Virus record (IMG/VR): IMGVR_UViG_3300033069_001940
Location: 32,001 to 96,000 of that record
From: a virus
Lineage: Duplodnaviria; Caudoviricetes
Strand: one strand, 5' to 3'
DNA length: 64,000 nt
Shown: positions 4,690 to 23,185 of the stretch, one piece after another
Numbering within the stretch: the stretch's first letter is position 1
Layout of the letters: each line of letters starts with the position of its first letter
Made by a program: the position numbers and the translations under genes
The notes under the pieces: generated by a model
Told to the model about the DNA's origin: nothing
Seen by the model: the letters and a program-made list of their open reading frames with translations, nothing else
Database searches by the model: none

Positions 4690-7587
4690 ATGAAGAAAAA
4701 AGAAATTTCAATACCAGAAACATTATGGCAAAATTCAATGCGCGTACAGCAATCAGATTTGATTGCTCAACAAAATCACAGCAATCAAGTAGATTCTGCG
4801 ATAGTAAATAATCATTTTGGTTCTGGTGTTTTATTAGAAGGCTTGAATAAAACGATTATTTTTGATTCTGATAATCTTACTACAGACCAAACTAACTTAA
4901 AAAATATTAATTCATTTGATGGTGTTGGGATTACCCCTCATAATCAACCTTCGGATTTAACATATGGTAATCAGTTAGAGGTTATTTTAACTGATTCAAA
5001 TGTTTTTGGAAGATTATCAGTTAAGGTAGCGATCATCGGATTAGATTTTAATGGCAATCTGCAAAGTGATACTTTTTATTTTTTTGAAAATGAAAAGCAG
5101 ATTACATCCAAACATTATACCAAGGTCTTAAGTATTTTATTTTATGATTTTTTTGGAAATTTTATTTCTAGAAATCTTGGTGGAAGAATTTTAATTCAGG
5201 AAACAAATTCATTACAAATTTCCAAAGAATCTGTAATGATTGCTCAGGATACTTATCCATCTTTATTTTGGAGAGATTTTAAACCAAATACCACAACATC
5301 AAATTTATCAAATATCTTACAAACAGCAATAGGCCCAGAATATAATGTTGATGGTTTAAATATTAATATAAGCGGAATAACTTCCAAGCAATTAGAGCCA
5401 GACGACGTTGTTTCGCAGGTTGGACAAAAGTTTTTAGCAAAAACTAATAATATTCAAAAAATAACATTGCTTTTAGGAGTTGTAGCTGACGGTTCTGTAT
5501 TTGATTGGTCAGGTGATTTGGTTGTTAGTATATATCCATTACAAACAGACGTCGTTAATCCTGGCGATATTCTACCAGGATTGCCAATTGAATTTACTCC
5601 ATCTAATCAACCTTTAGTTCAAATTAGTTATAGTCAACAAACATTAAAAGAAATTGGATATCAATTAAATGATGTACTTCAACCAATTGATTTTGTATTT
5701 TCTGGAACAAAAGTTGGAAAATCTGGCGGAATAGTTCCAGATAAATATTATGTGGTAACTGTAAAACGCTCAGGTTCTGCTGATACTGGCACAATTTTAT
5801 TAGGAGCAGGTTTAAGCTCATCATCTGATTATAGAGTTACACTTTACAATAGCGTGTGGGTTGATATTCCAGAAGAATCATTATGGTTCCAAGTCTGGAC
5901 CGATGCTGCTAAAGTATCAGACGGAATGGGATATGATAATGGTATTGGTATTAGCATTCCTAAAACAAAATTAGATCCAAAAACTGGATCCATTATTGAT
6001 AACGAAGAAAAATATTATTCAATTTTTTCTACATCAGAAAACACTTTAAATACAGCTATTATACAGGCGGTTGAAGAAGATTTTCTAGTTTCTCAAAATG
6101 AAAGAACGGGATCAAAAACATTTATTAGAAAAAGAATGGTCCCATCGTTAAATTTTGTTAGTTCTTCTAAGCTTAATGAGTTAAAAAATGAATATTTACC
6201 ATTAATAGTGGGTGCTGCCCAAGATTTTAATCCAAAAAAGAATTTGACTTTAACTAAAGTTCAAACATATCCTGGATTAGGACTTAATGATGCATTTATC
6301 ATTATTAATCCTGACTCTGACTTATTATCATTTAATTTGGTCGGAAGCAAACTAAAACCAAATGTTCTTAATACTAATGAATATAGAATATTTAAACAAA
6401 CTCTATATACTAATTATTATGGAGACGTTAATGGCGATGGTATAATTGATAATTTAGATGTAATTAGAGCTACGGAATTATTAGGATATTCTTTATCAAG
6501 CCCTGTAACACAGCAAAAGATTTTAGACGGTGAAGTTACCACTTTAGAAATTTTAAGAGCAGATGTGGATGGCGATGGAACAGTAACATCAACAGATATA
6601 GACTTAATTACACAATATGTTAATAAAGAAATTTCTGGGTTCTCTGCTGGAACTTATTTTAAACACTTGTTATTAAAAGTACAACAAAGCGTTGGTCGTT
6701 ATGATTATTATTATGATTGTACTAATGGAAGAATAAGATTAGATGGAGTTACTAGTCAAAATATTATTTCGGTAGGTAGCGTCAGTGAGTCAACCGCAAT
6801 ATTAGACGGGTACATGTTTGATCAATCAATAGAGTCTGACCCAGCTTATTCAACTACATCATTTGTTGATGTAACATATGAAATATTACCACAATTATTT
6901 TGGCAGTCTTATTTATTCTGTGTTAATGATGATGTTAGATTAGTACCATCTTCATTTATAAATGAAAATGCAATAGTACCGTATACCGACCCCAACATTT
7001 CTTTGTCTGAGGATAAATCAAAATCTACACCAACAGTTGATACTGGAAGAAATGATGTATTTTTCCCAGGCCATATTTATCTTAATAATGGCCAATTACT
7101 TAATAAAGATGGCACTTATTACAAAATAGATTTTGAAATTGGAAACATTACTTTAGAATTACCAATTCAAGCTTTAATCGAATCTAATATTAATATTTTT
7201 GAAAAATTTATTTGCGAATATAATAACACTGGATTAACTGCGGCTAAATACAAAGCAATGAAATATGCTGATGGAAGTTTTGTTCAGCCAAATGATTTAG
7301 CATATAATAGAATAAGATTTGCAGCGGCGATTCAGAGTATTGCAAAAAATTCTGATGGTTATTCTGTCGATGATGGTTATGGAATAATTTTAGACGATAT
7401 ATTCGGGGTTTTAATAGATCATTCAACCGGCATTTTAACTTTAAATGTTCAGAATCTGTCGATAGATCCTATTTATTTAACTTTGATTACAAAAATTCAA
7501 ATTACCGTTTATCTTAAGAAAGGCAGTTGGAACAATACTCCTATTGTTGTTAATGCTTCTGAAATAGCGGGTTTAATTTCTTCGTAA
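4690..7587 (+). CDS. Large putative virion protein containing a dockerin-like duplicated Ca-binding motif
   Basis: GDVNGDGIIDNLDV ... ADVDGDGTVTSTDIDLI; starts 2 nt after the upstream structural gene. Confidence 0.6.
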   Translation: MKKKEISIPETLWQNSMRVQQSDLIAQQNHSNQVDSAIVNNHFGSGVLLEGLNKTIIFDSDNLTTDQTNLKNINSFDGVGITPHNQPSDLTYGNQLEVILTDSNVFGRLSVKVAIIGLDFNGNLQSDTFYFFENEKQITSKHYTKVLSILFYDFFGNFISRNLGGRILIQETNSLQISKESVMIAQDTYPSLFWRDFKPNTTTSNLSNILQTAIGPEYNVDGLNINISGITSKQLEPDDVVSQVGQKFLAKTNNIQKITLLLGVVADGSVFDWSGDLVVSIYPLQTDVVNPGDILPGLPIEFTPSNQPLVQISYSQQTLKEIGYQLNDVLQPIDFVFSGTKVGKSGGIVPDKYYVVTVKRSGSADTGTILLGAGLSSSSDYRVTLYNSVWVDIPEESLWFQVWTDAAKVSDGMGYDNGIGISIPKTKLDPKTGSIIDNEEKYYSIFSTSENTLNTAIIQAVEEDFLVSQNERTGSKTFIRKRMVPSLNFVSSSKLNELKNEYLPLIVGAAQDFNPKKNLTLTKVQTYPGLGLNDAFIIINPDSDLLSFNLVGSKLKPNVLNTNEYRIFKQTLYTNYYGDVNGDGIIDNLDVIRATELLGYSLSSPVTQQKILDGEVTTLEILRADVDGDGTVTSTDIDLITQYVNKEISGFSAGTYFKHLLLKVQQSVGRYDYYYDCTNGRIRLDGVTSQNIISVGSVSESTAILDGYMFDQSIESDPAYSTTSFVDVTYEILPQLFWQSYLFCVNDDVRLVPSSFINENAIVPYTDPNISLSEDKSKSTPTVDTGRNDVFFPGHIYLNNGQLLNKDGTYYKIDFEIGNITLELPIQALIESNINIFEKFICEYNNTGLTAAKYKAMKYADGSFVQPNDLAYNRIRFAAAIQSIAKNSDGYSVDDGYGIILDDIFGVLIDHSTGILTLNVQNLSIDPIYLTLITKIQITVYLKKGSWNNTPIVVNASEIAGLISS

Positions 7588-7589
7588 TT

Positions 7590-8684
7590 ATGAAAATTTG
7601 TATCAAAGGTTTTTTCGGTGAGAATCACTCTTGGGCAGTATGTCATCGCGGTCTAGCTAATTCCTTAATTAAAAAAGGACATGATGTAGATATCTGTTCT
7701 ACAGATGGAAGTAGATTTCTTCCAAAAAATCTACTTCCATTTCTTAAAAAAGAAAATCAATTATATCATGATTATGATATGCAAATTAGTTATACTGCTA
7801 TGATTAATTTTCCGAGACATTTATCGCGCGGAACCAAAAATAGATTTGGTATTTGGAATTATGAATTTACGGTTTTGCCAAATAAACCACAACCATTTAA
7901 TAAATTTTATACATTTACTGATAAATTTCTGCCATCCTCGAATTTTTCAAAAGAAATTTTTTTAAAAAATAATATTCCAGAGAGTCATATGGAAGTGGTT
8001 TCTCATGGAGTTGATTTAGAACATTGGAATAATTTAGAGCCATTTAAATTAAATACAAATAAAAAAGTTAAAATATTAGCCAATATAGCACAGCCTCATA
8101 TAAGAAAAAATCTATCAGGATTACTAGACGCTTATGGTTTAGCATTTAATAAAAGCGATGATGTTTGTTTAGTGTTGAAGGTAGTTGATAAACCGCCTTC
8201 ATTTTCTTTTGAAGTTTCTTTTTCAGAAATATATAAAGACTTTAATAAAAAATTCCCTAATCATGCGGAATGCGAAGTTATTAAAGCTTTTATTCCAGAG
8301 ATAGGAAGTTTATATAAATCAACAGACATAGTATTTACTATGTCAAATTCTGAATGTTTTTATTTTCCTGGATTAGAAGCATTAGCAACTAATAATATAA
8401 ATGTTTGTCCTCGTTATGGTGGACAATTAGATTTTTTAAATGATGGCAATGCTTTGTTGATAAGTGGAAAAGACGTCAGAGCCCCAATTGCGGCTCAATA
8501 CTGGAATGGTTCGCCATACTCTTCTATGTTTGAGCCATCAGTTAGTGAAGCCGTAGATAAGTTAAGGTTCGCGGTATCAAATGTAAATGATTTAAAAAAT
8601 AAATTTTCAACAAATTCTAAAGAGATATTGAAAGAATATACTTGGGACAAAGTTACTGACAAAATTATTAGTTTGGCAAAATAA
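7590..8684 (+). CDS. Glycosyltransferase, GT4-like (GT-B)
   Basis: HGVD, RKN, SECFYFPGLEALA (EX7E-like), C-terminal YTWDKV. Confidence 0.85.
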   Translation: MKICIKGFFGENHSWAVCHRGLANSLIKKGHDVDICSTDGSRFLPKNLLPFLKKENQLYHDYDMQISYTAMINFPRHLSRGTKNRFGIWNYEFTVLPNKPQPFNKFYTFTDKFLPSSNFSKEIFLKNNIPESHMEVVSHGVDLEHWNNLEPFKLNTNKKVKILANIAQPHIRKNLSGLLDAYGLAFNKSDDVCLVLKVVDKPPSFSFEVSFSEIYKDFNKKFPNHAECEVIKAFIPEIGSLYKSTDIVFTMSNSECFYFPGLEALATNNINVCPRYGGQLDFLNDGNALLISGKDVRAPIAAQYWNGSPYSSMFEPSVSEAVDKLRFAVSNVNDLKNKFSTNSKEILKEYTWDKVTDKIISLAK

Positions 8685-9646
8685 TGTCATTTAAAATTTT
8701 TCCTTTTTCGGCCGGAATCCCTTGGGAAATAAATAAGGGAATCTTAAATCCTAAGATTCCATTTAATATTTTAAATAATGCTATTTCAGATAAAAATATT
8801 ATTGTTACTTGTTATGGTGGTTTGCTAGAATCTTATTTAAGTCTTTCTTATCTTGAAGCTTTTAATAAAATTTGGCCATCTAAAAAATTAACTTGGTCAG
8901 GCAACCCTATATTCAAAGATTTGATAGAAGCAAATGGTCTGTCTAAATTTAGCGAAGAAATACCTGGAGAGATTTTATCAAGATACCCTGTACCGTTATT
9001 TTTTGATAAATTAAATAACGCAATATTTAATCCATTAAATAATTACATAAAAATAAAACCTTATTATGGAGGCTTGAAATCATTCAATAATAATAATGTT
9101 TATTTAAAACAAATCTGGAATAATTCTCTTCTTGATTTTAAAAATTTTTATTTGCCTTTAATTAGAAATGATTTTGATAATAATAATTTTAAAAATCATT
9201 TATTATTATCAAAATTTGATTTTAATAAACCTTATATTATTATTATCCCTGATGATTTAAAATATTCAATTCATTCTCAAAAATGTTTGCCTTGGAATAT
9301 TCAACAGGTTAAATCTTTTGCTACAATTATATCACAATTAGGATATTCTACAGTTATCTTAACTGATAACGTTTATAAATATTATTCAAATAATTTGCCT
9401 TTTGTTTTTGAATTTAATTTTACTGCATTTTTTACTTTAATTAAGAATTCAAAAATGATTTTATCTAATGAAATAGATTTTTTATTAATTTCACAGTTAA
9501 TATCGGACAATTATTTGGTATCAAATAAGGTAAAAAAATATCTAGATTTTGGTAAAATTGATTATTTATTAAAAACAAAAAGTAAAATTAAAATATTCAA
9601 ATCAATGAATCAAAATGATGTTATTGGATTATTAAATAAAATATGA
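8684..9646 (+). CDS. Putative glycosyltransferase (GT9/heptosyltransferase-like, divergent)
   Basis: GGLLESYLSLSYLEA...WPSKKLTW and KPYIIIIP...KCLPW pattern; cluster context. Confidence 0.45.
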   Translation: MSFKIFPFSAGIPWEINKGILNPKIPFNILNNAISDKNIIVTCYGGLLESYLSLSYLEAFNKIWPSKKLTWSGNPIFKDLIEANGLSKFSEEIPGEILSRYPVPLFFDKLNNAIFNPLNNYIKIKPYYGGLKSFNNNNVYLKQIWNNSLLDFKNFYLPLIRNDFDNNNFKNHLLLSKFDFNKPYIIIIPDDLKYSIHSQKCLPWNIQQVKSFATIISQLGYSTVILTDNVYKYYSNNLPFVFEFNFTAFFTLIKNSKMILSNEIDFLLISQLISDNYLVSNKVKKYLDFGKIDYLLKTKSKIKIFKSMNQNDVIGLLNKI

Positions 9647-12252
9647 AATCATATATTACAGCATTTAAAAATTGTAGATTTACTAACTATGGATTATTAT
9701 TTGAATCTAAAACTGGAAGGTGTTTTTTAGATTTGTCTGGATATAGTAAAGTTAAGTTATGTTTTACCAGAATTTCTGGAGATGGCAAAATTATTCTTTG
9801 TTCTGACGGATTAGATAAAGAATATTCAATATTATCAAAATATAATTTTGAATTAGAGATTGAATTTAACGATCCAAAAATTCAAATACTTCGCCCTAAG
9901 AGTAGCCTTGGAGAGATTGTTTTAACTAATGTTATAGTACAGGATGGTATGTCAAAATGGAATGAAATTTTTAAAAAGATTGATTCTAAATATATTAGAG
10001 TTGTTAATGATAATTTATATGCCAATGACGGGGCTTATATAGCGCCTAAAGATCTTGTAGATAATTTAATAACAATTCCAGAAAAAAGTTTTGTTTATAA
10101 GGAAGATAAAATTGTTTTTAGTCAATGTCAAATAAGCGCTTTGTCTTTAAAAGACAAATTAGAGACGACAAAAGAAGAAAAATATACTGAAATATATAAT
10201 TCAAATCAAAGTCTTTCTTTTAAAAATTATAATTATAATAGTAAAAAACTTAAATATATTTATAGTTGCGGGGAGCATTTTTTATTATTAAAACCAATCT
10301 CCAATGCGAGTTTTTCTGTTTCTAATCTTGAAGAAAACACAAAATATTACATTAAAATTAGAGCAAAAAAATTAAATGGCAATGGTAGATTTCATTTTAA
10401 TATTTCTCCAAAAAATAATCTTGGATTTGCTGACTGTACAATAGACGCTGGTTCTAATTTTAATGAATTTAATCTAACTGTAGAGACTGGTTCTATAGAA
10501 TTTCCTGGCAATTTATTTAAAATAAATGTAGGTATGTTAGATGATGGTATAGGCGAAGTTTTAATATCTAACATAACAATTTATTGCGATTCAGAAAAAT
10601 GCAATATTGTAAATATACCAAAAAATATACCAAAAAATACATTAAATAAATTAAAAGAAAATGAAACAAAAGTTATTTTAAATAAAAATATTAATAACAA
10701 ATCAATAATATCTAAAAATCTCCCACAATTATTAAATCCATCCAAATTAAGACCATCTTTTGATTTAAAAGCAAATACAGATAGAAAATTTGTTATAGTT
10801 ATTCCAAGCTATAAAAATGAGAAATGGGTTGAAAAAAATATCACTTCAGCATTAAATCAAAATTATAATTTTTATAGAGTTATTTTTATAGATGATTGCT
10901 CCCCGGATAATACATTTGAAGTGGCTCAAAATGTTATTAAAAAATTAAATTCACAAATTAAAACAACTCTAATTAAGAATCAAGTTAGAAAAGGCGCTCT
11001 TTGCAATTTATATAATGCCATTCATAGTTGCGCTGATGACGAAATTATTGTTACTCTTGATGGCGATGATTGGCTTGCACATGATAATGTTTTAAGTTTT
11101 CTTAATACCGTTTATAAGTCTGGAGATACTTGGATGACTTATGGCCAATATAAAAATTGGCCAGATGGCGGCAAGGGTTTGTGTAAACAAATTCCAAAAC
11201 ATATTATTGATAGTAATGCTTATCGAGCGCATGAATGGTGCTCTTCTCATTTAAGAACATTTTATGCCTGGCTATTTAAATCAATTAAGTTAGAAGATTT
11301 TAGATATCAAGACCAAGAATTTATGAGTATGGCTTGGGATATGACTATGTGTTTCCCAATGTTAGAAATGTCTAAAAATCACCATAAATTCATTCCAGAT
11401 ATTTTGTATATTTATAATCTTGAAAATCCACTCAATGATCATAAGGTTAATAAAAAATTACAACAAGACACCGATGCATTTGTTAGAGCTAAAAATAAAT
11501 ATCAACCTAAATTACCAGAACAATATAATGGTAAAAAAACTAAAATTGGTCTTTTAATTATTGGGACTAATAAATATGTACAATTTTTAAATCCATTAAT
11601 TTCATCTGCCGATAGATATTTTTTTGTTGATGATAAGTATGATGTAACTTATTTTGTTTTTACCGATGGTAAAATTAATTTTGCTACAAACAGAAACGTT
11701 GAAGTAATACCTATTGAACATAAATCATTTCCGTTTGCGTCTATGGATAGATTTAAACATTTTTCAAATAATAAAGAAATTTTAAGTAAAATGGATTATC
11801 TTTATTATGTAGATGCGGATAGTTTGTTTGTTGATAGTATAGATGATGAAATTTTAGGTGATTTAGTTGGCGTTACTCATTGTGGTTATTACAAGCGCCA
11901 AGGAACCTTTGAGACAAATAAAAATTCTAAATTATACCATCCATTAGAAAAAACAAAAAATGCAGTTTATTATGGAGGAGGATTCTCTGGAGGTTTGTCT
12001 TCTAAATATTTAGAGTTAAGTCAGGAAGGTGCGAGACTGATCGAAGAAGACCTAAATAATAACATCATGCCCCTTTGGCATGATGAGACTTTTTTAAATT
12101 ATTACTTTATTAATAATCCTCCACAAATTACTCTTTCTCCAAGCTATCATTATCCACAAGATAATCCAGAAATATATAAAAAATGGAGCCCTGATAATTT
12201 TATTCCTAAAATATTGTTGCTTGAAAAAAATCACAGAGATATTAGGTCTTAA
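9643..12252 (+). CDS. Multidomain glycosyltransferase: N-terminal beta-sandwich region + GT2 + GT6 (ABO-family alpha-1,3-Gal/GalNAc transferase)
   Basis: GT2: VIVIPSYK, IDDCSPD, LDGDDW. GT6: IGLLIIGTNKY, YFVFTD, YVDADSLF, YYGGGFSGG, WHDETFLNYYF, LSPSY, LEKNH. Confidence 0.85.
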   Translation: MKSYITAFKNCRFTNYGLLFESKTGRCFLDLSGYSKVKLCFTRISGDGKIILCSDGLDKEYSILSKYNFELEIEFNDPKIQILRPKSSLGEIVLTNVIVQDGMSKWNEIFKKIDSKYIRVVNDNLYANDGAYIAPKDLVDNLITIPEKSFVYKEDKIVFSQCQISALSLKDKLETTKEEKYTEIYNSNQSLSFKNYNYNSKKLKYIYSCGEHFLLLKPISNASFSVSNLEENTKYYIKIRAKKLNGNGRFHFNISPKNNLGFADCTIDAGSNFNEFNLTVETGSIEFPGNLFKINVGMLDDGIGEVLISNITIYCDSEKCNIVNIPKNIPKNTLNKLKENETKVILNKNINNKSIISKNLPQLLNPSKLRPSFDLKANTDRKFVIVIPSYKNEKWVEKNITSALNQNYNFYRVIFIDDCSPDNTFEVAQNVIKKLNSQIKTTLIKNQVRKGALCNLYNAIHSCADDEIIVTLDGDDWLAHDNVLSFLNTVYKSGDTWMTYGQYKNWPDGGKGLCKQIPKHIIDSNAYRAHEWCSSHLRTFYAWLFKSIKLEDFRYQDQEFMSMAWDMTMCFPMLEMSKNHHKFIPDILYIYNLENPLNDHKVNKKLQQDTDAFVRAKNKYQPKLPEQYNGKKTKIGLLIIGTNKYVQFLNPLISSADRYFFVDDKYDVTYFVFTDGKINFATNRNVEVIPIEHKSFPFASMDRFKHFSNNKEILSKMDYLYYVDADSLFVDSIDDEILGDLVGVTHCGYYKRQGTFETNKNSKLYHPLEKTKNAVYYGGGFSGGLSSKYLELSQEGARLIEEDLNNNIMPLWHDETFLNYYFINNPPQITLSPSYHYPQDNPEIYKKWSPDNFIPKILLLEKNHRDIRS

Positions 12253-12972
12253 ATGTCAGTTATGTTTTCAAAATTGGGACAAATGGGGCGTCTAGGTAAT
12301 CAGTGCTTTCAGGCGGCTGCCGCCATAGCATTGGCAGATGAATATAGCGTCCCCTACTTATTACCTAAAACAGAATTACATGAAGCTTTTCCTAATTTAA
12401 AATATTGTAGTATTCCAAATAGCTCAATGGTATATAAAGAACCAGATTTTTCTTATAAAGAAATACCGTATGTTGAAAATATGGATTTATTAGGATATTT
12501 CCAATCTTGGAAATATTTTAATAATTGTAGAGGCTTAATAAATAATTTATTTAAATTTCCCAATGATGTGCCAGAATTAACAGGAGTTACTGCTATTCAT
12601 GTACGTCGTGGTGATTATGTAAAACTTGGTCAAGAATATTATGTCGATTTGTCTTTTACAGATTATTATGTCCAAGCAATAGGATATATTAAGTCTAGTA
12701 AATATTATGTTTTTTCAGATGATTTAGAATATTGTAAAAAAATGTTTAAAGGTAATGAATATGAATTTATATCATCTGGAAGTCCGTGGAAAGATTTACA
12801 GATGATAAGTTCTTGTGAAAATGTTATTATGGCCAATTCATCATTCTCTTGGTGGGGAGCTTATTTAAATAATAATCAAAATAAAATAGTAATAGCTCCT
12901 AAAAAATGGTTTGGTAGTAAATTGTCGCATAGTACAAATGATTTATATAACTCAGAATGGGTTATAATATAA
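12253..12972 (+). CDS. GT11 alpha-1,2-fucosyltransferase
   Basis: GRLGNQ, GYFQS, HVRRGDY, FSDD, ANSSFSWWGAYL, APKKWF. Confidence 0.92.
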   Translation: MSVMFSKLGQMGRLGNQCFQAAAAIALADEYSVPYLLPKTELHEAFPNLKYCSIPNSSMVYKEPDFSYKEIPYVENMDLLGYFQSWKYFNNCRGLINNLFKFPNDVPELTGVTAIHVRRGDYVKLGQEYYVDLSFTDYYVQAIGYIKSSKYYVFSDDLEYCKKMFKGNEYEFISSGSPWKDLQMISSCENVIMANSSFSWWGAYLNNNQNKIVIAPKKWFGSKLSHSTNDLYNSEWVII

Positions 12973-12981
12973 AGGTTTTTT

Positions 12982-13761
12982 ATGACAAGCTGGTGGAATA
13001 AAAATGTAGAATCAAGGCTTGATGACTTTAAGTCATGGGTTGGGGACCATAATCAGGCAAGTAAAGTTTATTGTAGAAAATATATTGTAGAAAAACAATA
13101 TAAAAGTATGGTAGATTGTGGTTGTGGGTTAGCCACAGATTTTTTTGCATTAAAAAATGATGGTTATAGCATTGCTTATACCGGCATAGACAGTTGTAAA
13201 TTTATAGTTGATACTAATAGGTCTAATGGAATAGACATGGTGGAGGCAGAATTAGAACAACCTTTACCAATAGAAGATAATAAATACGATGTAGCGTATT
13301 GTAGAGAAGTTCTTGAACATCTATCTTATTATGAAAATGCAATAAATGAATTTATAAGGATAGCTTCAAAAGAAGTAATAATTGTATGGTTTATAAAACC
13401 AATAGAAGAATGGCAGTGGGAAGAAGAGATAAAAGATAAAATTCTTAGAATGAAAAAAGAGCATTTTGAAGAACAATATAAAATAAATACAGAGAATGGA
13501 TTAACTGATCCTCTTCTAGTAAAAGATATAGATATAGTAATTTCCGATGATAATAAAGAAATCAATTATTGGAAGCCAGAAGATCTTTATCATAACAAAT
13601 ATGATAAAAATAAATTAGAGAATTTTATCTTAAGCAATCCAAAAGTAGAAAAAATATTTTGGAATGATGTGTGTGATGAACCATATCCAGTTCAATGTGA
13701 AACTGATAATAAGCCCAATTTCATAAAATCAGTATTACATATAGTTTTAAAGGAAAAATGA
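12982..13761 (+). CDS. Class I SAM-dependent methyltransferase
   Basis: VDCGCGLA, YTGID, YDVAYCREVLEHL. Confidence 0.8.
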   Translation: MTSWWNKNVESRLDDFKSWVGDHNQASKVYCRKYIVEKQYKSMVDCGCGLATDFFALKNDGYSIAYTGIDSCKFIVDTNRSNGIDMVEAELEQPLPIEDNKYDVAYCREVLEHLSYYENAINEFIRIASKEVIIVWFIKPIEEWQWEEEIKDKILRMKKEHFEEQYKINTENGLTDPLLVKDIDIVISDDNKEINYWKPEDLYHNKYDKNKLENFILSNPKVEKIFWNDVCDEPYPVQCETDNKPNFIKSVLHIVLKEK

Positions 13762-14837
13762 AATTTTTTAATATCGATCAACATGTTTCAGTCATAGCGG
13801 ATATCGCTCATATATTTAAAAATTTAGGTCATCAGGTTGATGACTGGTCATTGTCTGGACATCATTGGGTTTTAGGTAAACCAAAACCAAAAATTATGTT
13901 AAGCGACGGAAGTCAACTCATTGGATCTAATGTTTGCACTCAAGAAACATGTGATAAATTTTACGAACAATATAAAGATCAATTAGAACAATATGACGCT
14001 TTTATTGTTTGTTATCCAGTAGAATTTGCGCTCCTTTATGAAAAATGGAACAAACCAATTATAGTCGTAAATTGTGTTAGATATGAAGCGGATATGAATA
14101 TCCAAACATGGACACGAATAATTAAAAGTAGGCTAGATAATTTTTTAAAGCTTAAACAAAGTGAAGGTAAATTATATTATATTTGTAATAATAAAGGAGA
14201 CCAATATTATACAAAATATTTTACAGGCATAGATGGTGTGCATATTCCAAGTTTGTGCGAGTATACTAACGCAAAATATACTGGAACAAAAAATAAATAT
14301 ATAATACATGATAGAGCAGAGATTTCTGTTAATAATAATTTATGTATTAACTTAGATAATATAAGGGATAAAAATAGGAAATATACTTGGCAAGATTTAT
14401 ATGATTATAAAGGGGTTATACATGTACCTTATAATAATGGTTCAATGTCTATATTTGAACAATATACAGCAAATGTTCCAATGTTTTTCCCATCAAAACA
14501 ATATGCAAAAAAACTTATTAGTGAAAATAAAATGTTTTCTGATTTGACGTTTTATAAAATTAACAAAGTTAATGAGCCAGAAGATTATAATAATCCAAAT
14601 AGTTTAAGAAATCCAGAAATTTTAAATAAATGGATTGATACATCTGATATGTATGATGTTGACAATATGAAATATATTCAATATTTTGATTCGCTTGCTC
14701 ATTTAGAGCATTTATTAAAAACAGTTAATTTGAAAGAAATTAGTAGTAATATGTCGGCACATAATGTATTAAGAAAAGAATCTATATATAATAGCTGGAA
14801 TCAAATTATTACAAGTGTTAAAAGTAAAATTAATTAA
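13758..14837 (+). CDS. Hypothetical protein, probable GT-B glycosyltransferase
   Basis: YKGVIHVPY..SMSIFEQYTANVPMFFP motif; cluster context. Confidence 0.45.
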   Translation: MKFFNIDQHVSVIADIAHIFKNLGHQVDDWSLSGHHWVLGKPKPKIMLSDGSQLIGSNVCTQETCDKFYEQYKDQLEQYDAFIVCYPVEFALLYEKWNKPIIVVNCVRYEADMNIQTWTRIIKSRLDNFLKLKQSEGKLYYICNNKGDQYYTKYFTGIDGVHIPSLCEYTNAKYTGTKNKYIIHDRAEISVNNNLCINLDNIRDKNRKYTWQDLYDYKGVIHVPYNNGSMSIFEQYTANVPMFFPSKQYAKKLISENKMFSDLTFYKINKVNEPEDYNNPNSLRNPEILNKWIDTSDMYDVDNMKYIQYFDSLAHLEHLLKTVNLKEISSNMSAHNVLRKESIYNSWNQIITSVKSKIN

Positions 14838-14852
14838 ATAAATTAGGATAAT

Positions 14853-15638
14853 ATGAAGGTTGCTATTTTTTCATTCGCTGTTAATTTTCAATTTCCAATT
14901 GATATTATGAATAGACAATTCAAAAAATATTTAAAAGATGATTATGAATTAATCATTTTTAATGATGCTTCTGATAAACAAGAAGAAAAAAATATTAATG
15001 TTGTTACTTCATCTAATCAAATTAAATGCGTACGTGTGCCACAAGAAATACATAAAATATTTAGTCCATCAGTAGCATATGCTGAAACTTTAAATTGGGC
15101 CGTTCACAATTATGCAGCATCAAAAGATTTTGATATTATTGTATTAATGCATTCTGATATATTTCCAATATGTCAAATTTCTATGGTTGATATTTTAGGA
15201 GATTATACTGTGGCTAGCACTTCTGAGTTCCGTAAAATTGGCGAAACAGGAATAACATATTTATATCCAGCTTTTACAATTGTTAATATGAAATCTTTAA
15301 AACAATTAGGTGTTCATAAATTAGATTTTGGTTTGGAGCCAGGCGTAGACACTGGAGGTAAAACTAAAGATTTTATTATAAAATATCCAAATTTAGTTAA
15401 ATTATTACCTAATTATCAAGCTTCATATTTTTTACAAACATTAGATAATTCTGAAATATTAGCGAAATATTTTAAAGAAGATTTAGAAATTTCTAGAGCA
15501 CACGGATTAAGTTCTGGATGGATTGCAGAGGGTATGTACCATTATATGGCGGGGTCTAGATGGAATTTGAATGATAATCCATTATTTGCCGAAGGGCATA
15601 AAAAAAGAATGGATTTATTTTTAAAATATTTTTATTAA
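14853..15638 (+). CDS. Probable GT-A fold glycosyltransferase
   Basis: LIIFNDAS, VLMHSDIFP (DxD-like), DTGG, YHYMAGSRW. Confidence 0.5.
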   Translation: MKVAIFSFAVNFQFPIDIMNRQFKKYLKDDYELIIFNDASDKQEEKNINVVTSSNQIKCVRVPQEIHKIFSPSVAYAETLNWAVHNYAASKDFDIIVLMHSDIFPICQISMVDILGDYTVASTSEFRKIGETGITYLYPAFTIVNMKSLKQLGVHKLDFGLEPGVDTGGKTKDFIIKYPNLVKLLPNYQASYFLQTLDNSEILAKYFKEDLEISRAHGLSSGWIAEGMYHYMAGSRWNLNDNPLFAEGHKKRMDLFLKYFY

Positions 15639-15640
15639 AG

Positions 15641-16288
15641 GTGGATATGACATATTATTCTCAAGCGTGGCAAGATGAATTTGTAGCAAATATTCTAAAT
15701 TTTAAAAAGAATGGATATTATTTAGATATTGGTAGTACAGATGGAATTAATCAAAGCAATTCATATTTTTTTGAAAACGAACTTGGCTGGAAAGGAGTTT
15801 GTATTGAAAGGGGTGTTGGATATACAGAACACTACAAAAATAATAGGAATTGTGTTTTTTTAAATGAAGACGCGACACAAATTGATTATAAAAAGTTATT
15901 AGATAATTTATCTTATCCAAAGCAAATTGATTATTTATCAGTTGATATAGATGAAAATACCGTTGCTGCTTTAAATAAGCTTCCGTTAGAAGATTATAAA
16001 TTTAGTGTAATAACAATTGAGCATGACGCTTATCGTTTTAATGATTCTTTAAGATTAGAAGAAAGAAGAATATTAAGTTCATATGGTTATACCTTATTGT
16101 GCTCAGACGTTTTAGTTCCGCTCGGCTGTGGTATGGGTACAAATCTTCCATTTGAAGATTGGTGGGTGGATAATAAAGTTTTTAATATGGATAATACACA
16201 TAGGTTATGTTGCGATAAACAGTATCCAGATGATATAGTTAAAAAAGTAAAGCAAGAAAAAGTACAATGGCTAAAAGGAAATGAATGA
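15641..16288 (+). CDS. FkbM-family methyltransferase
   Basis: YSQAWQD, YLDIGSTDG..SNSYFFE..LGWKGVCIE, IDYLSVDID, ITIEH. GTG start. Confidence 0.8.
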   Translation: MDMTYYSQAWQDEFVANILNFKKNGYYLDIGSTDGINQSNSYFFENELGWKGVCIERGVGYTEHYKNNRNCVFLNEDATQIDYKKLLDNLSYPKQIDYLSVDIDENTVAALNKLPLEDYKFSVITIEHDAYRFNDSLRLEERRILSSYGYTLLCSDVLVPLGCGMGTNLPFEDWWVDNKVFNMDNTHRLCCDKQYPDDIVKKVKQEKVQWLKGNE

Positions 16289-17121
16289 AAAAAATTATAA
16301 GTTATTCTTTATATAATTCTATACCAAAAAATACAATTAATGCAATTATTAATTGTATGTTAGCCGAAAAAATTTATCCAGGTTGGGTGGTGAGATTTTA
16401 TTTAGATGATACTGTGCCAAAACCTATAGTTGATATATTGAGAACATTTTCTCATGTTGAGGTTGTAGAAATGCCGCGCGGAACAGGAAGCGAAAGAATG
16501 CTATGGAGATTTTTAAGTTGTAGTTCGGAAATAGAAACAGATTACCAATCTATTATGATTAGTCGTGATGCTGACTCTTATTTATCGGTTAGAGAAAAAG
16601 CTTGTGTAGACGCTTGGCTTGCTGGTAATAAGAATTTTCATAAAATTATTGGTCATTGTTATCACACAGACCCTAAGGTTAAAATTATGGGAGGTTTATG
16701 GGGCTGTAGAAATTCTATTTTATCAAAAATGAAAGAAGAAGTTGATAAGTTTATTAATGGAGGCGAGACATATGACCAAGGATTTTTAGCCAATGTGATT
16801 TACCCAAATGTACTGCATGATTTAATTTGTCATTATGACGACCCATCATTTAATAATAAAGGTCAAAGAGTTTATGGTCAGCCAGAAGAAAAAGGAAGTG
16901 CATTTCCAATTCCTCCATATAAAGAGTGGGATGAGCCTGTTGAGGGAATTTCTTGGCTTGAAGCTAATAAACTAAATGAATTTTATTGCGCTCATTGTAA
17001 TAAAAAACACAAAGAAGTTATTGGCGGTATTATTGAGCATATTCCATCGAGAGCGATGGAGGTCGTTCGAAAATATGTCGCAGAAAAAGGAATTTCTGTA
17101 GAAGGTTGCCCCGGTTTTTAA
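16285..17121 (+). CDS. Probable GT-A-like glycosyltransferase of the type seen in viral glycan clusters
   Basis: KIISYSLY, YPGWVVRFY, MLWRFL, SRDADS (DxD), IMGGLWG, DQGFL..IYP. Confidence 0.55.
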   Translation: MKKIISYSLYNSIPKNTINAIINCMLAEKIYPGWVVRFYLDDTVPKPIVDILRTFSHVEVVEMPRGTGSERMLWRFLSCSSEIETDYQSIMISRDADSYLSVREKACVDAWLAGNKNFHKIIGHCYHTDPKVKIMGGLWGCRNSILSKMKEEVDKFINGGETYDQGFLANVIYPNVLHDLICHYDDPSFNNKGQRVYGQPEEKGSAFPIPPYKEWDEPVEGISWLEANKLNEFYCAHCNKKHKEVIGGIIEHIPSRAMEVVRKYVAEKGISVEGCPGF

Positions 17122-17133
17122 TAAAGGATAAAA

Positions 17134-18033
17134 ATGATAAATAATGAAGTTGGTATATTATGTAACGAACAACATGGTGACATAGGTTTGTGTACATCTG
17201 TTTTAAAATATAAAGATCTATTATGGCCAGGTAAAAAAGTAATATGGTATTGTAATTTTGCTCCAGAGAAAGTTACATATATGGATATGTTAAAATTCAA
17301 TGATGCTATATCTGAAATTAGAGAATGGCCAAAAGTTTGGTTTAAAGATATAATGGATGAAAATTTTCAAATTAGACATGATAAAAAACATGAATTTGAA
17401 CAATTAAAAACACTTGATGTTGGATATTTTCCAGCACCTTGGGCAGCATTACCAAATAATTTATTTAATAACAAAAATTATTCAGAAATACCAAGACATA
17501 TATTCGGAGCAGACCCCTCTTGGGAGTGGCGGCCGTGTTTGGGATTTTCAAATGAAGAGAGAGAGATGGTTAAAGATTTTTCTTCAAAACTACCTCATTC
17601 AAAAACCGTAATGCTTGAAACTCAATTAAGATCTGCTGGTAATTTTAATCTAAGCGAAGATATTATAAGAAATACCATGAGCCTTTGTAGAAAAAAATGG
17701 GGGAAATGTAATTTTATTTTTGCTAGCAAAATAGATCATACTAAATTTGTTGATGACGCTGGCGTAGTTTCAGCCGCGGATTTCACTGTAAGGCAAACTT
17801 CATTAATACATGACCAATCAGATTTATTTATATCTGTATGTAGTGGGATTACTGTTGCTTCAAGTTGCTGGGGTTCGAAGCCGGTTCCGAGAGTCGAGAT
17901 GTGTAGTGTAAATACAAGTTATAAAAATTTATGTTATGGACCGACCATTAGTGTTTTTTGTGAAAATTGGACAGAAGAACAATTAAAAAAAGGTTCTGAA
18001 GATGCAATTATTCAGATTTTAAATAAATTATAG
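17134..18033 (+). CDS. Putative GT9-like glycosyltransferase
   Basis: HGDIGLCTSVL...WPGKKVIW; SDLFISVCSG. Confidence 0.5.
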   Translation: MINNEVGILCNEQHGDIGLCTSVLKYKDLLWPGKKVIWYCNFAPEKVTYMDMLKFNDAISEIREWPKVWFKDIMDENFQIRHDKKHEFEQLKTLDVGYFPAPWAALPNNLFNNKNYSEIPRHIFGADPSWEWRPCLGFSNEEREMVKDFSSKLPHSKTVMLETQLRSAGNFNLSEDIIRNTMSLCRKKWGKCNFIFASKIDHTKFVDDAGVVSAADFTVRQTSLIHDQSDLFISVCSGITVASSCWGSKPVPRVEMCSVNTSYKNLCYGPTISVFCENWTEEQLKKGSEDAIIQILNKL

Positions 18034-18043
18034 CAGGGGAAAT

Positions 18044-20049: not shown

Positions 20050-20050
20050 T

Positions 20051-20308
20051 ATGGAAGTAACTTTAGGAAATCTTATAGACCAGCTTTCGGTTGTTAATTT
20101 AAGAATCTGGCATGCCGAAGATAAAAAACGAGATAAGAGCGCTACTGATAAAGAGATAGCTGACGCCTGCCGTTTAACCAATATATGTAATAGCCAAAGA
20201 AATGATTTAATTGAAGAGATAGATAAAAAAATAAATCATATGGTTCAAACTGGTGAACTTCAAAAACTTTATGGACAGGGCTCAACAAAGATGTATGGTG
20301 GAAAATGA
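20051..20308 (+). CDS. Small helical protein (DUF4254-like, common in glycan clusters)
   Basis: [21 protein letters not shown]...[12 protein letters not shown]. Confidence 0.55.
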
Positions 20309-21309
20309 CTCAAACGGCAATAATTACTGGAATTACTGGACAGACTGGCTCATATCTTGCAGACGTTCTTTTGGAAAAAGGTTACAAAGTATATGGTTTA
20401 AAAAGAAGAGCTTCAACAATTAATACTGAGCGTATAGATCATTTATATGTTGATCCTCATAAAGAAAGTAATTTAGAATTGGTTTATGGTGATTTGGCCG
20501 ATTATTCATCTATTGTGAGTATAGTAGCTGATGTTAAGCCGGATATGTTTTTTAATATGGCCGCACAATCGCATGTTCGAGTTTCTTTTGATATTCCTGA
20601 ATATACAATGGATGTTACTGGCAATGGTGTAATGCGTTGTTTAGAAGCTATAAGAAAATATAGTCCAAATACAAGATTTTTACAAGCCTCGTCTTCGGAA
20701 TTATTTGGCAGTTCGCCCCCACCACAAAATGAACAAACTAGATTTCAACCAAGGTCTCCGTATGCTGTAGCTAAAGCGGCCGGATATTATGCTGCTGTGA
20801 ATTATCGAGAGGCATATAATTTATTTGCTTGTAATACAATATGTTTCAATCATGAATCTCCACGTCGCGCTGAAACATTTGTTACAAGAAAAATAACAAA
20901 AGCGGCCTCCAGAATAAAATTAGGTTTACAAGACTTTTTATGGCTTGGTAATTTAGAATCTAAAAGAGATTGGGGTCATGCTAAAGATTACGCTAAGGCT
21001 ATGTATTTAGTTATTAATTCCGACCATCCAGATGATTATGTTGTTTCAACTGGTCAAATGCATTCTGTTAAAGAATTTGTTCAAATAGTTTTTGATAAAC
21101 TAGATTTAGATTGGACTAAATATGTTAAATTTGATCCAAAATATTTAAGACCATCTGAGGTAGATGCGTTGTTGGGTGATTCTTCTAAATTAAGAAATAC
21201 ATTAGGTTGGAAACCAGAGTATGATTTTAATATGCTTGTTGATGAAATGATTGAAAGAGATATGCAAGATGCTAAAAAAGAACAGTATATATTAAATTCA
21301 AAATTATAG
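20305..21309 (+). CDS. gmd: GDP-mannose 4,6-dehydratase
   Basis: [71 protein letters not shown]. Confidence 0.96.
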
Positions 21310-21366
21310 CTGATAACTGTCGAGTAGCTTCATTTTAAATTTCATCTCCTGTGTTGGAGAATAAAA

Positions 21367-22299
21367 ATGAGCATTAAGGTATTAGTGACCGGCGCCGCTG
21401 GAATGATAGGGTCGCATTTATCAGATAAATTAATCGATCTAGGTTTCGAGGTTATCGGATTGGATAATCTTTCGACCGGCAAAATAGAAAATTTAAATAA
21501 AAAAATGATTCTTGATAATCATTTTTATCAAGATAGTATTACTAATAAATATCTTGTTAAAGAGTTATTTGAAAAATACAAATTTAATTATGTATTTCAT
21601 TGTGCCGCTGAAATTGATTTAAGAAAAAGTTTTAAAGATCCGATTGGAAGCGCAGAGACTAATATTTTAGGTTCATTAAATTTGATTGAGCAATCTGTAA
21701 AACATCAATCTAAATTTATTTTTTCTTCTACTGGTGGCGCAATATATACATCATCTGATGAATTGCGTCTTCCATTTACAGAATGGAGAGATGCTTTACC
21801 ATCAAGTCCATATGGGTTAACTAAGTTAACAATAGAAAATTATTTAAAGATTTTTCATGAACATGATAATTTATCTTATGTAGCATTAAGATATTCTAAT
21901 GTTTATGGAACAAGACAAGCATTCGGAGAATGTGGTGTTTTGTCTATATTTATTAATAAACTTCTCAAATCTGAAAGTATTAATGTTTTTGGTGATGGTA
22001 ATCAAATAAGAGACTACATATATGTTAGTGACGTAGTGGATGCCAACATTAAAGCTATGAATTTATCTGGTGTTTATAATGTTGGAACAGGAGAAGGGAC
22101 TTCAGTTAATACAATTATTTTACATTTGAATAAATATTTTGGAATGATTGATGTTAATTATTTAGATGCTATTCCTGGAGAAATGAGATATAGTGTTTTA
22201 AATTGTGATAAATTAAAACGTCAAGGATGGTCTCCGTCTTTTAACCTAGACCAAGGTATAGCACAAGTTCTATCAAAAAGTGAGAAGTTAAATGTCTAA
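21367..22299 (+). CDS. NAD-dependent NDP-sugar epimerase (GalE/UDP-Glc(NAc) 4-epimerase-like)
   Basis: TGAAGMIGSHL, DNLSTG, SSTGGAIY, SPYGLTK, LRYSNVYG, GDGNQIRDYIYV. Confidence 0.85.
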   Translation: MSIKVLVTGAAGMIGSHLSDKLIDLGFEVIGLDNLSTGKIENLNKKMILDNHFYQDSITNKYLVKELFEKYKFNYVFHCAAEIDLRKSFKDPIGSAETNILGSLNLIEQSVKHQSKFIFSSTGGAIYTSSDELRLPFTEWRDALPSSPYGLTKLTIENYLKIFHEHDNLSYVALRYSNVYGTRQAFGECGVLSIFINKLLKSESINVFGDGNQIRDYIYVSDVVDANIKAMNLSGVYNVGTGEGTSVNTIILHLNKYFGMIDVNYLDAIPGEMRYSVLNCDKLKRQGWSPSFNLDQGIAQVLSKSEKLNV

Positions 22300-23185
22300 A
22301 AAAATATTATGTGTTGGAAGTTGCGGATTCATTCTTTCTAATTTTGTTAGAAAAGTAATTAAAGATAAATTAGATTATCAAGTTTGTAGTATAGATAAAA
22401 TATCTTCATCAAAAGATATTCATAATGTCTATAGTAATAGAAATCATAATTTCTATATTGGAAATACATTAGATAAACATTTTCTTAAAACTGTTTTTGA
22501 AATTGAAAAGCCTGATATTGTTATTCAAGGCTCTTTAACTAACCAAGAAGAATTCCTTCTTTCCAATGTAATCGGAACTGATAATTTGTGTCAAGTTTGT
22601 GAGGAATATGGCTCTAAATTATATTTATTAAGTTCAGATATAGTTTATGGCGTTTCTGAAGATGAGGAGCTAAGCCATAAAGAAACGGACTCTTGTGTTA
22701 TTTATAGTAAATATATGACATCACTAATTTCATCAGAGGATTTAGTGCAACATAGTGGGGGAACAGTTTTAAGACTATCGAATGCTTATGGTCCAAGATC
22801 CAAAAAACAAATCATCACTGATCTTATTCGTTTTCATTTAAAAAATGAAACTCCATATATTTGGAATGTTGGCTATGATTTTACTCATGTAGAAGACGTA
22901 ATATCTGCAATCCTTGTGATTATAGAATCAGGAAAAGAAAAAATATATAACGTATCATCTTCTCATCAATTTTCTGAGAAAGAAGTGTATAATGAAATTG
23001 CTAAATTAATTGAGTTAAAAGACCCAATAATAAATCAGAATACAAATTCGGTATCTACTCTTTTTAGAAGTAGCGATAATTCAAAACTAAGAGCTTTGGG
23101 CTGGAAGACTCAGCATACGTTGCAAGGTTGGTTGCCGTCGGTTGTTCAGTGGTATCTTAATAATCAATGGTTTTTAAAAGAATGA
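22292..23185 (+). CDS. RmlB-like (dTDP-glucose 4,6-dehydratase-like) SDR with degenerate catalytic motifs
   Basis: VGSCGFILSNFV, SNVIGT, SSDIVYG, RLSNAYGP, VQWYLNNQ; YxxxK is replaced by YMTSL. Confidence 0.6.
   Translation: MSKKILCVGSCGFILSNFVRKVIKDKLDYQVCSIDKISSSKDIHNVYSNRNHNFYIGNTLDKHFLKTVFEIEKPDIVIQGSLTNQEEFLLSNVIGTDNLCQVCEEYGSKLYLLSSDIVYGVSEDEELSHKETDSCVIYSKYMTSLISSEDLVQHSGGTVLRLSNAYGPRSKKQIITDLIRFHLKNETPYIWNVGYDFTHVEDVISAILVIIESGKEKIYNVSSSHQFSEKEVYNEIAKLIELKDPIINQNTNSVSTLFRSSDNSKLRALGWKTQHTLQGWLPSVVQWYLNNQWFLKE

Follow-up and report, generated by a model that had tools for sequence, protein, structure and literature searches.

Does a huge phage carry the enzymes for a blood-group-like glycan and, if so, what would it decorate? 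The question arises from 64,000 nt of viral DNA (the window, whose positions are used throughout; all features below lie on the plus strand), taken from a 125.6 kb huge-phage contig that represents a ~29% complete genome. A soluble glycan-synthesis gene cluster (7590-25111) is found there straight behind baseplate and giant tail-type genes. The sequence-only reading had picked out from it an 'ABO enzyme pair', GT6 and GT11, that could make an A-antigen-like epitope. Both family assignments stand, but the unit is better described as a triad of GT2, GT11 and GT6, and the 869-aa fusion protein with its adjoining GT11 is a genuine variant of a known pathway, though not a singular one.

The fusion gene (9643..12252, translation table 11) encodes 869 residues, in which Pfam and AlphaFold delineate a tandem CBM-like N-module, a GT2 domain and a GT6 domain. 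The AlphaFold model has a mean pLDDT of 82 and four separate folded parts, whose packing against each other is not confident in the full-length model (pTM 0.41). An Asn/Lys-rich disordered linker (residues 319-372; 10597..10758; pLDDT <50) follows the N-module. The open reading frame ends in TAA and the GT11 frame begins at the very next base, so the two genes do adjoin without a gap, as first described.

The C-terminal domain is a retaining GT-A enzyme of family GT6 (residues 633-869; 11539..12249), which agrees with the earlier placement at ~11540-12250. A mismatch to GT6 profiles had been named as grounds for giving up the reading; Pfam Glyco_transf_6 (PF03414) matches residues 624-840 with an E value of 1.7e-37 and 129.4 bits against a cut-off of 25. 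With NCBIfam NF041524 the domain scores 173 bits, under the subfamily cut-off of 250. On alignment to solved structures the best match is BoGT6a (PDB 4ayj, E 1e-36), and human GTA/GTB align with E 1e-28. The three motifs DAD, YYGGGFSGG and WHDETFLN are all present, at the expected alignment columns. The metal site D724-A-D726 (VDAD) aligns to NAN in BoGT6a and to DVD in GTA, and the DxD is thus retained, as it is in 132/132 fused homologues. YYGGGFSGG aligns to GTA 264-270, which confirms Gly-Gly-Gly at the ABO 266-268 columns, where the GalNAc-transferase BoGT6a has Ala-Gly-Gly in its donor pocket. W812-H-D-E815 (WHDET) aligns to GTA 300-304, its glutamate corresponding to the catalytic Glu303. 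The C-terminal K862, H864 and R868, equivalents of which close over the donor, are also present and, like WHDE, are invariant or nearly so in the family.

In the acceptor pocket, H746 (position A1), G748 (A2) and L859 (A7) correspond to BoGT6a His122, Gly124 and Ile228, and are conserved in 100%, 100% and 98% of the 132 fused homologues, whereas alpha3GT has Gln, Trp and Trp at these positions (PMC3516806). As in BoGT6a and human GTA/GTB, the acceptor residues are His, Gly, Thr, Tyr, Trp and Glu, and those at 266-268 are small. Judged by these residues, the pocket fits a fucosylated (H-type) acceptor, of the BoGT6a/GTA type rather than the alpha3GT type. BoGT6a differs in being metal-independent (NxN) and in having a membrane-binding tail, and the human enzymes in being Golgi type II membrane proteins; none of them is fused to another glycosyltransferase. 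Closer in kind is the DxD clade of GT6, which includes the cyanophage P-SSM2 enzyme and Parachlamydia PaGT6 and shares the DxD, the WHDE and the C-terminal Lys/His/Arg without a C-terminal membrane-binding extension (PMC3516806). The domain is 33-37% identical to cyanophage GT6. PaGT6 is a Mg2+/Mn2+-dependent GalNAc-transferase that converts H antigen to A antigen and is inactive on LacNAc (PMC3516806). However, members of that clade are standalone minimal domains of ~230 aa, whereas here GT6 occupies residues 633-869, the C-terminal end of an 869-aa protein. The fused enzymes also have Gly rather than Ala at the GTA-266 column and Leu rather than Ala at A7; across the characterised GT6 enzymes these replace Ala/Leu and Ala/Ile, respectively. 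In view of these two pocket differences, the specificity of the fused clade may differ.

Between the linker and GT6 lies an inverting GT-A domain of family GT2 (residues 378-622; 10774..11508). Glycos_transf_2 (PF00535) matches residues 385-495 (E 6.8e-18, 65.6 bits against a cut-off of 23.3), the DGDD motif (D473-G-D-D476) is invariant in 50 homologues, and residues 382-620 give a confident alpha/beta model. PDB relatives include TarS, TarP and the chondroitin/heparosan synthases (E 1e-7 to 6e-6), the closest solved ones being GlcNAc and GalNAc/GlcA transferases at E ~1e-7; the sugar moved by the domain cannot be read from sequence. The neighbouring gene (12253..12972) encodes a short, 239-aa member of GT11, the alpha-1,2-fucosyltransferase family. 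Glyco_transf_11 (PF01531) is matched with E 8.9e-26 and 91.2 bits (cut-off 23.9), Pfam aligning the C-terminal half, residues 113-238, to profile positions 166-296 of 298. All the family motifs are in place (G12-R-x-G-N16, H116-x-R-R-x-D121 and N195-S-S-F-S-W-W201), and GRLGNQ, HVRRGDY, SDD and NSSFSWW are at least 95% conserved among 121 homologues. The protein is ~50 residues shorter than characterised enzymes, and this short form is a large family with a median length of 238.

A duplicated beta-sandwich at the N-terminus had also been proposed, and both the duplication and the fold are recovered. Residues 1-102 are homologous to residues 218-316 (hhalign 97%, E 2e-11), and structure prediction gives two CBM-type jelly-rolls, the N-module as a whole having a pLDDT of 90.8. 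Jelly-roll A (residues 1-102; 9643..9948; pLDDT ~90-98) resembles CE2-esterase N-domains and CBM35 (VIA-align Z 10-11). Jelly-roll B (residues 180-317; 10180..10593) has a CBM6/22/35/36-type fold and superposes on BiXyn10A CBM1 with Z 11.5 and an rmsd of 2.5 Å over 118 residues, and on CBM36 and CBM6 with Z 11.4-10.7. No Pfam family matched the N-module, and its likeness to CBMs is one of fold. Between the jelly-rolls lies an extra subdomain of confident beta structure (residues 103-172; 9949..10158), which gave no profile match to jelly-roll B and was barely sampled by the fold search. The N-module also stands at the head of GT2+GT11 fusions and of a ~700-aa family whose C-terminal half may be GT-B-like, at present only a lead. 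The probable role of the jelly-rolls, on their flexible linker, is to keep the enzyme at the glycan or glycoprotein it acts on.

The first reading had implied a singular locus. The fusion is real, but belongs to a large metagenomic family: ~130 fused GT2+GT6 proteins were found, and in the GT6 phylogeny all fused domains form a single subclade. Since more than 100 independent contigs show the identical architecture, neither chance nor faulty assembly can account for it. A GT11 gene lies no more than 800 nt 3′ of the fusion in 10/10 evaluable loci, and is present at 57 of the 78 loci that carry this GT2 subfamily. Every arrangement of GT2, GT11 and GT6, fused or not, is seen across viral contigs: GT2+GT6 then GT11; the three as separate genes, in the order GT2, GT11, GT6 or GT2, GT6, GT11; GT2 fused to GT11; and N-module+GT2+GT11. 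The gene fusions couple the three enzymes in the Rosetta-stone manner, and it is these arrangements that identify the triad as the unit, as in E. coli O86. There, wbnJ (a GT2 beta-1,3-galactosyltransferase), wbnK (GT11) and wbnI (GT6) act in sequence to make a blood-group B-type epitope, from separate genes accompanied by wzx, wzy and an initiating transferase. The likeness is at the level of the three CAZy families, which are identical; the phage set, in contrast, is partly fused and includes a CBM-type module, and its cluster encodes no membrane partners. Cultured cyanophages already show GT11 next to GT6, and in the cyanomyovirus clusters (S-8S55, B3/B23, P-SSM2) a nucleotide-sugar epimerase lies alongside, as here, although those genes are small and separate, have no N-module and belong to other phage lineages of 170-250 kb.

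Gmd and a GalE-like epimerase do lie in the same cluster, as had been noted. The GDP-mannose 4,6-dehydratase (20305..21309) scores 453 bits with TIGR01472, above the cut-off of 415. The GalE-like UDP-hexose 4-epimerase (21367..22299) matches PDB 4zrm with E 1.1e-74 and scores 173 bits with TIGR01179, under the cut-off of 262; it is a candidate supplier of UDP-Gal/UDP-GalNAc. GDP-fucose synthase (Fcl) was found neither on the 125.6 kb contig (best score 44 bits against a cut-off of 500) nor, as an equivalog, in the class-A relative G001 (71% complete). A degenerate RmlB-like SDR of 297 aa (22292..23185; best PDB match 2hun, E 7e-22) was considered for this role and rejected: its Fcl match reaches only E 4e-5, it lacks the S-x-C and His motifs of Fcl, and the Lys of YxxxK aligns to Leu. 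Fcl scores reach 436, 259 and 237 bits in the relatives G002, G004 and G005, and in G002 and G004 a canonical Gmd-Fcl pair adjoins the same glycosyltransferase module; the host, too, may provide Fcl. One kilobase before Gmd lies a sugar C-methyltransferase (PF08484, E 4e-48), so GDP-4-keto-6-deoxymannose may be drawn off to another sugar. The acceptor pocket, Gmd and the GalE-like enzyme thus fit the A-like epitope of the original proposal; the missing Fcl and the C-methyltransferase count against it, as do the short, half-aligned GT11, the distant relatives of the GT2 and the two pocket differences of the fused GT6 clade.

We slightly favour a reading in which the 869-aa protein and GT11 together supply three activities, as a module of the ABO(H) kind. 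The inverting GT2 domain would add a beta-linked sugar, most likely galactose; GT11 would place an alpha-1,2-fucose on it, giving an H-type disaccharide; and the metal-dependent, retaining GT6 would attach alpha-1,3-GalNAc (or Gal) to that sugar as well, leaving an A-like trisaccharide cap. The tandem jelly-rolls and their linker would keep the enzyme on its substrate, most likely a phage structural protein, although the target is the weakest step of the proposal. Immediately 5′ of the cluster, in conserved order and on the same strand, come a Baseplate_J wedge gene and the genes for giant LamG and dockerin proteins. Virion glycosylation in mycobacteriophages, where soluble phage glycosyltransferases encoded beside structural genes attach glycans to proteins of the capsid and tail (Freeman et al. 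2023, as cited in PMC12619734), offers a model for such a target, the glycosyltransferase families and glycans differing from those seen here.

The same enzymology could instead act on undecaprenyl-linked O-antigen, capsule or LPS-core intermediates at the cytoplasmic face of the host, with export by the host flippase, polymerase and ligase. The surface of the infected cell would be altered in this way, for example so that other phages are kept out or progeny do not adhere to debris. Bacterial O-antigen enzymes of GT2, GT11 and GT6, such as those of E. coli O86, are likewise soluble or peripheral, and cyanophage 'LPS' gene clusters contain the same families. None of the proteins encoded in the cluster shows a credible transmembrane segment (maxima of 19-residue hydropathy stay below 1.6, except 1.79 for a GT4-like protein at 23167-24357), which would suit dependence on host export. 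However, no Pfam family or membrane protein in the cluster corresponds to an initiating phosphoglycosyl transferase, flippase, polymerase or ligase, its place behind the baseplate and tail genes is conserved, and a CBM-type module common to several glycosyltransferase architectures suits a soluble glycan or glycoprotein better than a lipid-linked substrate. We regard a host-surface target as possible but less likely than not.

Rather unlikely, in our estimate, is that the families are right and the glycan is not ABO-like, GT11 moving another GDP-6-deoxyhexose made from the Gmd product (C-methylated, differently reduced, or colitose) and GT6 using another donor or acceptor. The lack of Fcl on the contig and in G001, the C-methyltransferase, and the clade-specific Gly 266 and Leu A7 all point this way, and GT11 does include the colitosyltransferase WbgN. 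Yet the canonical Gmd-Fcl pairs of relatives with the same module, the fucose-accepting pattern of His, Gly and an aliphatic residue at A1, A2 and A7, and the lack of a ColD-type aminotransferase-fold enzyme among the Pfam matches in the cluster argue for fucose, and with 29% of the genome in hand and a host that may supply it, a missing Fcl weighs less. That the genes came to adjoin and fuse by accident, or are decaying cargo, with no coupled function, is scarcely credible: nothing was found in its favour, and it is contradicted by catalytic residues that stay invariant in both domains over 50 to 132 homologues of ~40% identity, by the constant GT11 neighbour and by the single fused clade.

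Taken to its furthest, the proposal is that a broad lineage of huge (~250-480 kb) uncultured phages furnishes the proteins of its own tails or baseplates with histo-blood-group A-like caps (GalNAc-alpha-1,3-[Fuc-alpha-1,2]-Gal-beta-) by a CBM-targeted, partly fused GT2/GT11/GT6 assembly line. This we hold to be unlikely; if true, it would give the first case of a phage particle bearing ABO(H)-type glycans, adding a new glycan class to those on virions. GT6 enzymes produce the ABO, alpha-Gal and Forssman antigens. Their scattered occurrence beyond vertebrates has been attributed to transfer of an enzyme of the DxD type from prokaryotes or phages, only two cyanophage examples being known at the time (PMC3961637), and the fused subclade would then add a large new pool of enzymes relevant to the prokaryote/phage origin proposed for the vertebrate ABO gene family. 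DxD-type GT6 is common in huge phages, fused to GT2 and a CBM-type module and accompanied by GT11, which makes a compact and testable three-step pathway. An A-like product would provide naturally fused bifunctional enzymes for blood-group oligosaccharide synthesis; should the product differ, the Gly 266 and Leu A7 signature would mark a new GT6 specificity.

The genes flanking the module recur with it. Just 5′ of the fusion, a 320-aa frame (8684..9646) without a Pfam match is syntenic across all class-A loci; its Atlas structure (TM 0.63-0.67 to the GT9 family) suggests, as a lead only, a GT9-like protein. Downstream of GT11, a class I SAM methyltransferase (12982..13761; Methyltransf_11, E 2.4e-10) bears only a weak similarity to the methyltransferase that class-B proteins carry as a fused part, and its position is conserved, with synteny in L009, L014, L012 and L017.

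The 869-aa open reading frame at 9643-12252 (+) carries, by Pfam, a GT2 domain (residues 385-495, E 6.8e-18) and a GT6 domain (residues 624-840, E 1.7e-37). Its TAA stop directly abuts the ATG of a 239-aa open reading frame (12253-12972, +) that is assigned to GT11 (Pfam, E 8.9e-26). The observation of a fused GT2-GT6 protein followed without a gap by GT11, made in the sequence-only reading, is confirmed in every detail. Among solved structures, the GT6 domain is closest to BoGT6a (E 1e-36), followed by human GTA/GTB (E 1e-28). Aligned to solved GT6 enzymes, VDAD coincides with the NAN/DVD metal motif, YYGGGFSGG with GTA 264-270 and WHDET with GTA 300-304, placing the DAD, YYGGGFSGG and WHDETFLN motifs recognised by eye on the expected BoGT6a/GTA columns. 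The printed structure alignment stops short of the C-terminal tail; by reading of the sequence, KNHRDIRS in the fusion appears to be the counterpart of the GTA tail KNHQAVRNP. The GT11 is of the short form (median 238 aa), a very large family in which the classic GRLGNQ, HxRRGDY, SDD and NSSFSWW motifs are all at least 95% conserved. The Pfam alignment of the 239-aa protein covers its C-terminal half only, and sequence comparison with the PDB gave no solved structure related to GT11.

In BoGT6a, residues His122, Gly124 and Ile228 at the acceptor-pocket positions A1, A2 and A7 permit a 2'-fucosylated acceptor, whereas alpha3GT has Gln, Trp and Trp (PMC3516806). The phage GT6 carries H746, G748 and L859 at these positions. 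All 132 fused homologues have His at A1 and Gly at A2, 130 have Leu at A7, and 129 have Gly-Gly-Gly at donor-pocket positions 266-268 (human GTA numbering); standalone viral and cellular DxD enzymes mostly share the Ala-Gly-Gly of BoGT6a and the A7 Ala of GTA/GTB. PaGT6, a member of the DxD clade, needs Mg2+ or Mn2+ to transfer GalNAc onto the H antigen and does not act on LacNAc (PMC3516806). Because the pocket residues match the fucose-accepting type, and given the activity of PaGT6, an A-like product of the phage GT6 is a reasonable prediction; the specificity could still be shifted, given the pocket signature peculiar to the fused clade. The A-antigen-like epitope proposed earlier is thus backed by the identity of GT6 and GT11 and by the pocket residues, and stands as a predicted product.

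A full-length AlphaFold model of the fusion (50 homologues as input, mean pLDDT 82) resolves five parts, namely beta-rich regions at residues 1-170 and 181-316, a disordered linker (319-372), GT2 (382-620) and GT6 (633-869), whose packing against one another is not confident (pTM 0.41). Modelled on its own, the N-terminal region reached a pLDDT of 90.8. In VIA-align, residues 180-317 superposed on jelly-rolls of the CBM type: BiXyn10A CBM1 scored Z 11.5 (118 residues, rmsd 2.5 Å), and the Z scores for CBM36 and CBM6 were 10.7-11.4. Residues 1-100 matched the N-domains of CE2 esterases and CBM35 at Z 10-11. BLAST found no duplication inside the region, but profile-profile comparison did, aligning residues 23-102 with 218-316 (97% probability, E 2e-11); the two jelly-rolls are therefore a duplication, in agreement with the duplicated beta-sandwich that had been suspected. 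Segment 103-172 forms an extra subdomain between them. No Pfam family covers this N-module, and Foldseek with the two-domain model gave TM of at most 0.33 to tandem CBMs and phage tail proteins, which informs the fold class only. Matches of residues ~220-250 to giant proteins were dropped, these being fibronectin-III repeat proteins with a short strand-motif resemblance.

The fused GT2-GT6 architecture is not unique to this phage. A search of 5.8 billion proteins with the fusion returned ~290 relatives, many of them on contigs of 200-480 kb, in two architectures. Class A (N-module, GT2 and GT6; 840-930 aa) matches the query over its full length at ~40% identity, the two nearest relatives reaching up to 79%; class B (SAM-methyltransferase, GT2 and GT6; 730-1000 aa) shares ~55% identity across GT2 and GT6. 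Invariant or nearly so in 50 class-A sequences are the GT2 DGDD, the GT6 DxD, the Gly triplet, the H, D and E of WHDE and the C-terminal K, H and R. In an unrooted (midpoint) tree of DxD-type GT6 only, every fused protein has its GT6 domain in a single clade, and classes A and B do not separate cleanly. Nine apparently standalone sequences also lie inside this clade; most are probably cut fragments, from contigs of ~7 kb or less. In a 642 kb phage (LR756502.1, locus L002, 8720-10312), GT2 (241 aa) and GT6 are separate, abutting genes; this GT6 protein is 530 aa long with a ~290-aa N-terminal extension, and a GT11 lies 4 kb downstream. A genome scan of cellular MAGs gave ~400 DxD-type GT6 genes (401 stretches confirmed), many in Dependentiae and Chlamydiota, far more than the 36 GT6-bearing bacterial species known in 2014. 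Such genes (loci L086-L165) occur commonly in MAGs from Dependentiae/Babeliales, Chlamydiota (Parachlamydiaceae, Simkaniaceae and Rhabdochlamydiaceae), Verrucomicrobiota and Pseudomonadota.

IMG/VR was scanned with the fusion-family alignment, and the resulting 78 loci were annotated with custom domain HMMs. Loci with this GT2 subfamily carry GT11 in 57 of 78 cases. Four gene arrangements occur: GT2-GT6 fused and followed by GT11 (L006-L017); separate GT2, GT11 and GT6 genes (L023, L032, L033, L036); separate GT2, GT6 and GT11 genes (L029, L038); and GT2 fused to GT11 (L028, L030), with the N-module added in L015 and protein P0326. GT11 lies within 800 nt downstream of the fusion in all 10 evaluable loci, overlapping or abutting it in 7. 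The adjacency on which the proposed GT6/GT11 pair was based is real, but the unit is a triad that includes GT2. That fusions occur in every combination speaks for a single pathway shared by the three enzymes. Within it, the reaction order GT2 first, GT11 second and GT6 last is suggested by ABO(H) chemistry and by PaGT6's requirement for fucose. The wbnJ/K/I genes of E. coli O86 follow the same logic.

The N-module also heads GT2-GT11 fusions, and one CBM-type module common to several glycosyltransferases suggests a putative common docking function. The sister architecture (L015 7917-10538; P0326) has 873 aa, its N-module and GT2 being fused to GT11, not GT6. The same tandem N-module occurs in a ~700-aa family (P0243-P0300; for example L018 4936-7038 and L044 7809-9983) next to GT2 and GT11 genes; its C-terminal half has no Pfam domain and, as a lead only, may resemble a viral GT-B (GT1/GT4-type) enzyme (Atlas score 0.93). 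As to what is glycosylated, none of the proteins encoded by the gene cluster at 7590-25111 has a credible membrane segment, and neither a flippase nor a polymerase, ligase or initiating transferase was detected there. The glycosylation of mycobacteriophages makes virion proteins the preferred candidate target here; remodelling of the host surface is a possible but less likely alternative.

Papers of 2012-2014 had already described the DxD clade and the occurrence of GT6 in marine metagenomes and in cyanophage P-SSM2. Cultured cyanophages carry GT11 adjoining GT6; S-8S55, with the order epimerase, GT11, GT6 (annotated hypothetical), resembles the phage module in having GT11 beside GT6 and an epimerase alongside. 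A soil-virome paper counts GT6 and GT11 among the auxiliary genes of phages and contains no enzyme analysis. In the open-access papers searched we came across no account of the GT2-GT6 fusion, the N-module or the triad from phages. The module is real, conserved and well defined, and we infer its product and target. The pathway is of a known kind; what is new is its fused, putatively CBM-targeted form with a distinct GT6 subclade.

The Gmd and GalE-like epimerase reported in the same cluster also held up: Gmd is a true equivalog, and the gene after it encodes a protein strongly related to GalE (4zrm, E 1e-74) that could plausibly supply UDP-Gal/UDP-GalNAc. No Fcl equivalog was found on the 125.6 kb contig, and no clear Fcl in the class-A relative G001 (71% complete). 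In the complete 428 kb class-B genome G002, a Gmd 66% identical to the one in the window is followed directly by a near-equivalog Fcl (436 bits), ~4 kb from the glycosyltransferase cluster; the relative G004 also has adjacent Gmd and Fcl (70% identical and 259 bits, respectively), and G005 an Fcl-like gene (237 bits) near a GT2-GT11 locus. For the module in general a fucose donor is thus likely; for this phage it is putative. In a 327 kb relative (G003:C1:202941-205040, L170), Fcl-like sequence occurs as two matched pieces in one 709-aa frame, which may be Fcl fused to another domain. A 297-aa RmlB-like SDR at 22292-23185 was ruled out as a hidden Fcl, lacking the Fcl Ser-x-Cys and His motifs and having Leu at the YxxxK lysine. 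It reads SSDIVYG against STDEVYG in RmlB-type dehydratases (and L171), has a deletion of the (H)xAA segment that four of the five other SDRs in the alignment possess, and looks catalytically degenerate; G001 keeps it at 32% identity. Just before Gmd lies a sugar C-methyltransferase (PF08484, E 4e-48), and between the two a 263-aa open reading frame (19258-20049) with no Pfam match, which may be a truncated SDR-derived protein: its residues 138-224 align with the C-terminal part of Gmd (181-277; 29% identity, E 2e-5).

The window covers bases 32001-96000 of an IMG/VR viral contig of 125.6 kb. CheckV puts the completeness of this contig at ~29%, which implies a genome of more than 400 kb; a DNA-level search of a phage collection gave no match. 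The window has a GC content of ~30%, nearly all genes on the + strand, and also encodes DnaB-type and other helicases, ribonucleotide reductase and a TubZ-like tubulin. Upstream of it lies a Baseplate_J wedge protein (phrog_6, E 9e-29), followed by two giant proteins, one with LamG domains and the other with a dockerin. The 965-aa dockerin protein (4690-7587; type I dockerin PF00404, E 2.4e-9) ends just before the glycan cluster, which starts 2 bases past its gene, and is ~50% identical in all class-A relatives. These keep the order giant LamG protein, dockerin protein, GT4-like, 320-aa open reading frame, fusion, GT11 (32-59% identity). The methyltransferase after GT11 is not clearly an orthologue of the class-B fused methyltransferase (25% identity, E ~1e-5). 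Beyond it, four unannotated open reading frames (359, 261, 278 and 299 aa; 13758-18033) without a Pfam match are 59-71% identical in L009, L011, L012, L016 and L017, and so more conserved than the GT2-GT6 fusion (40-56%). The tubulin gene (25108-26436; PF00091 E 7e-18, TubZ C-domain E 2e-9) overlaps the end of the cluster's last glycosyltransferase gene.
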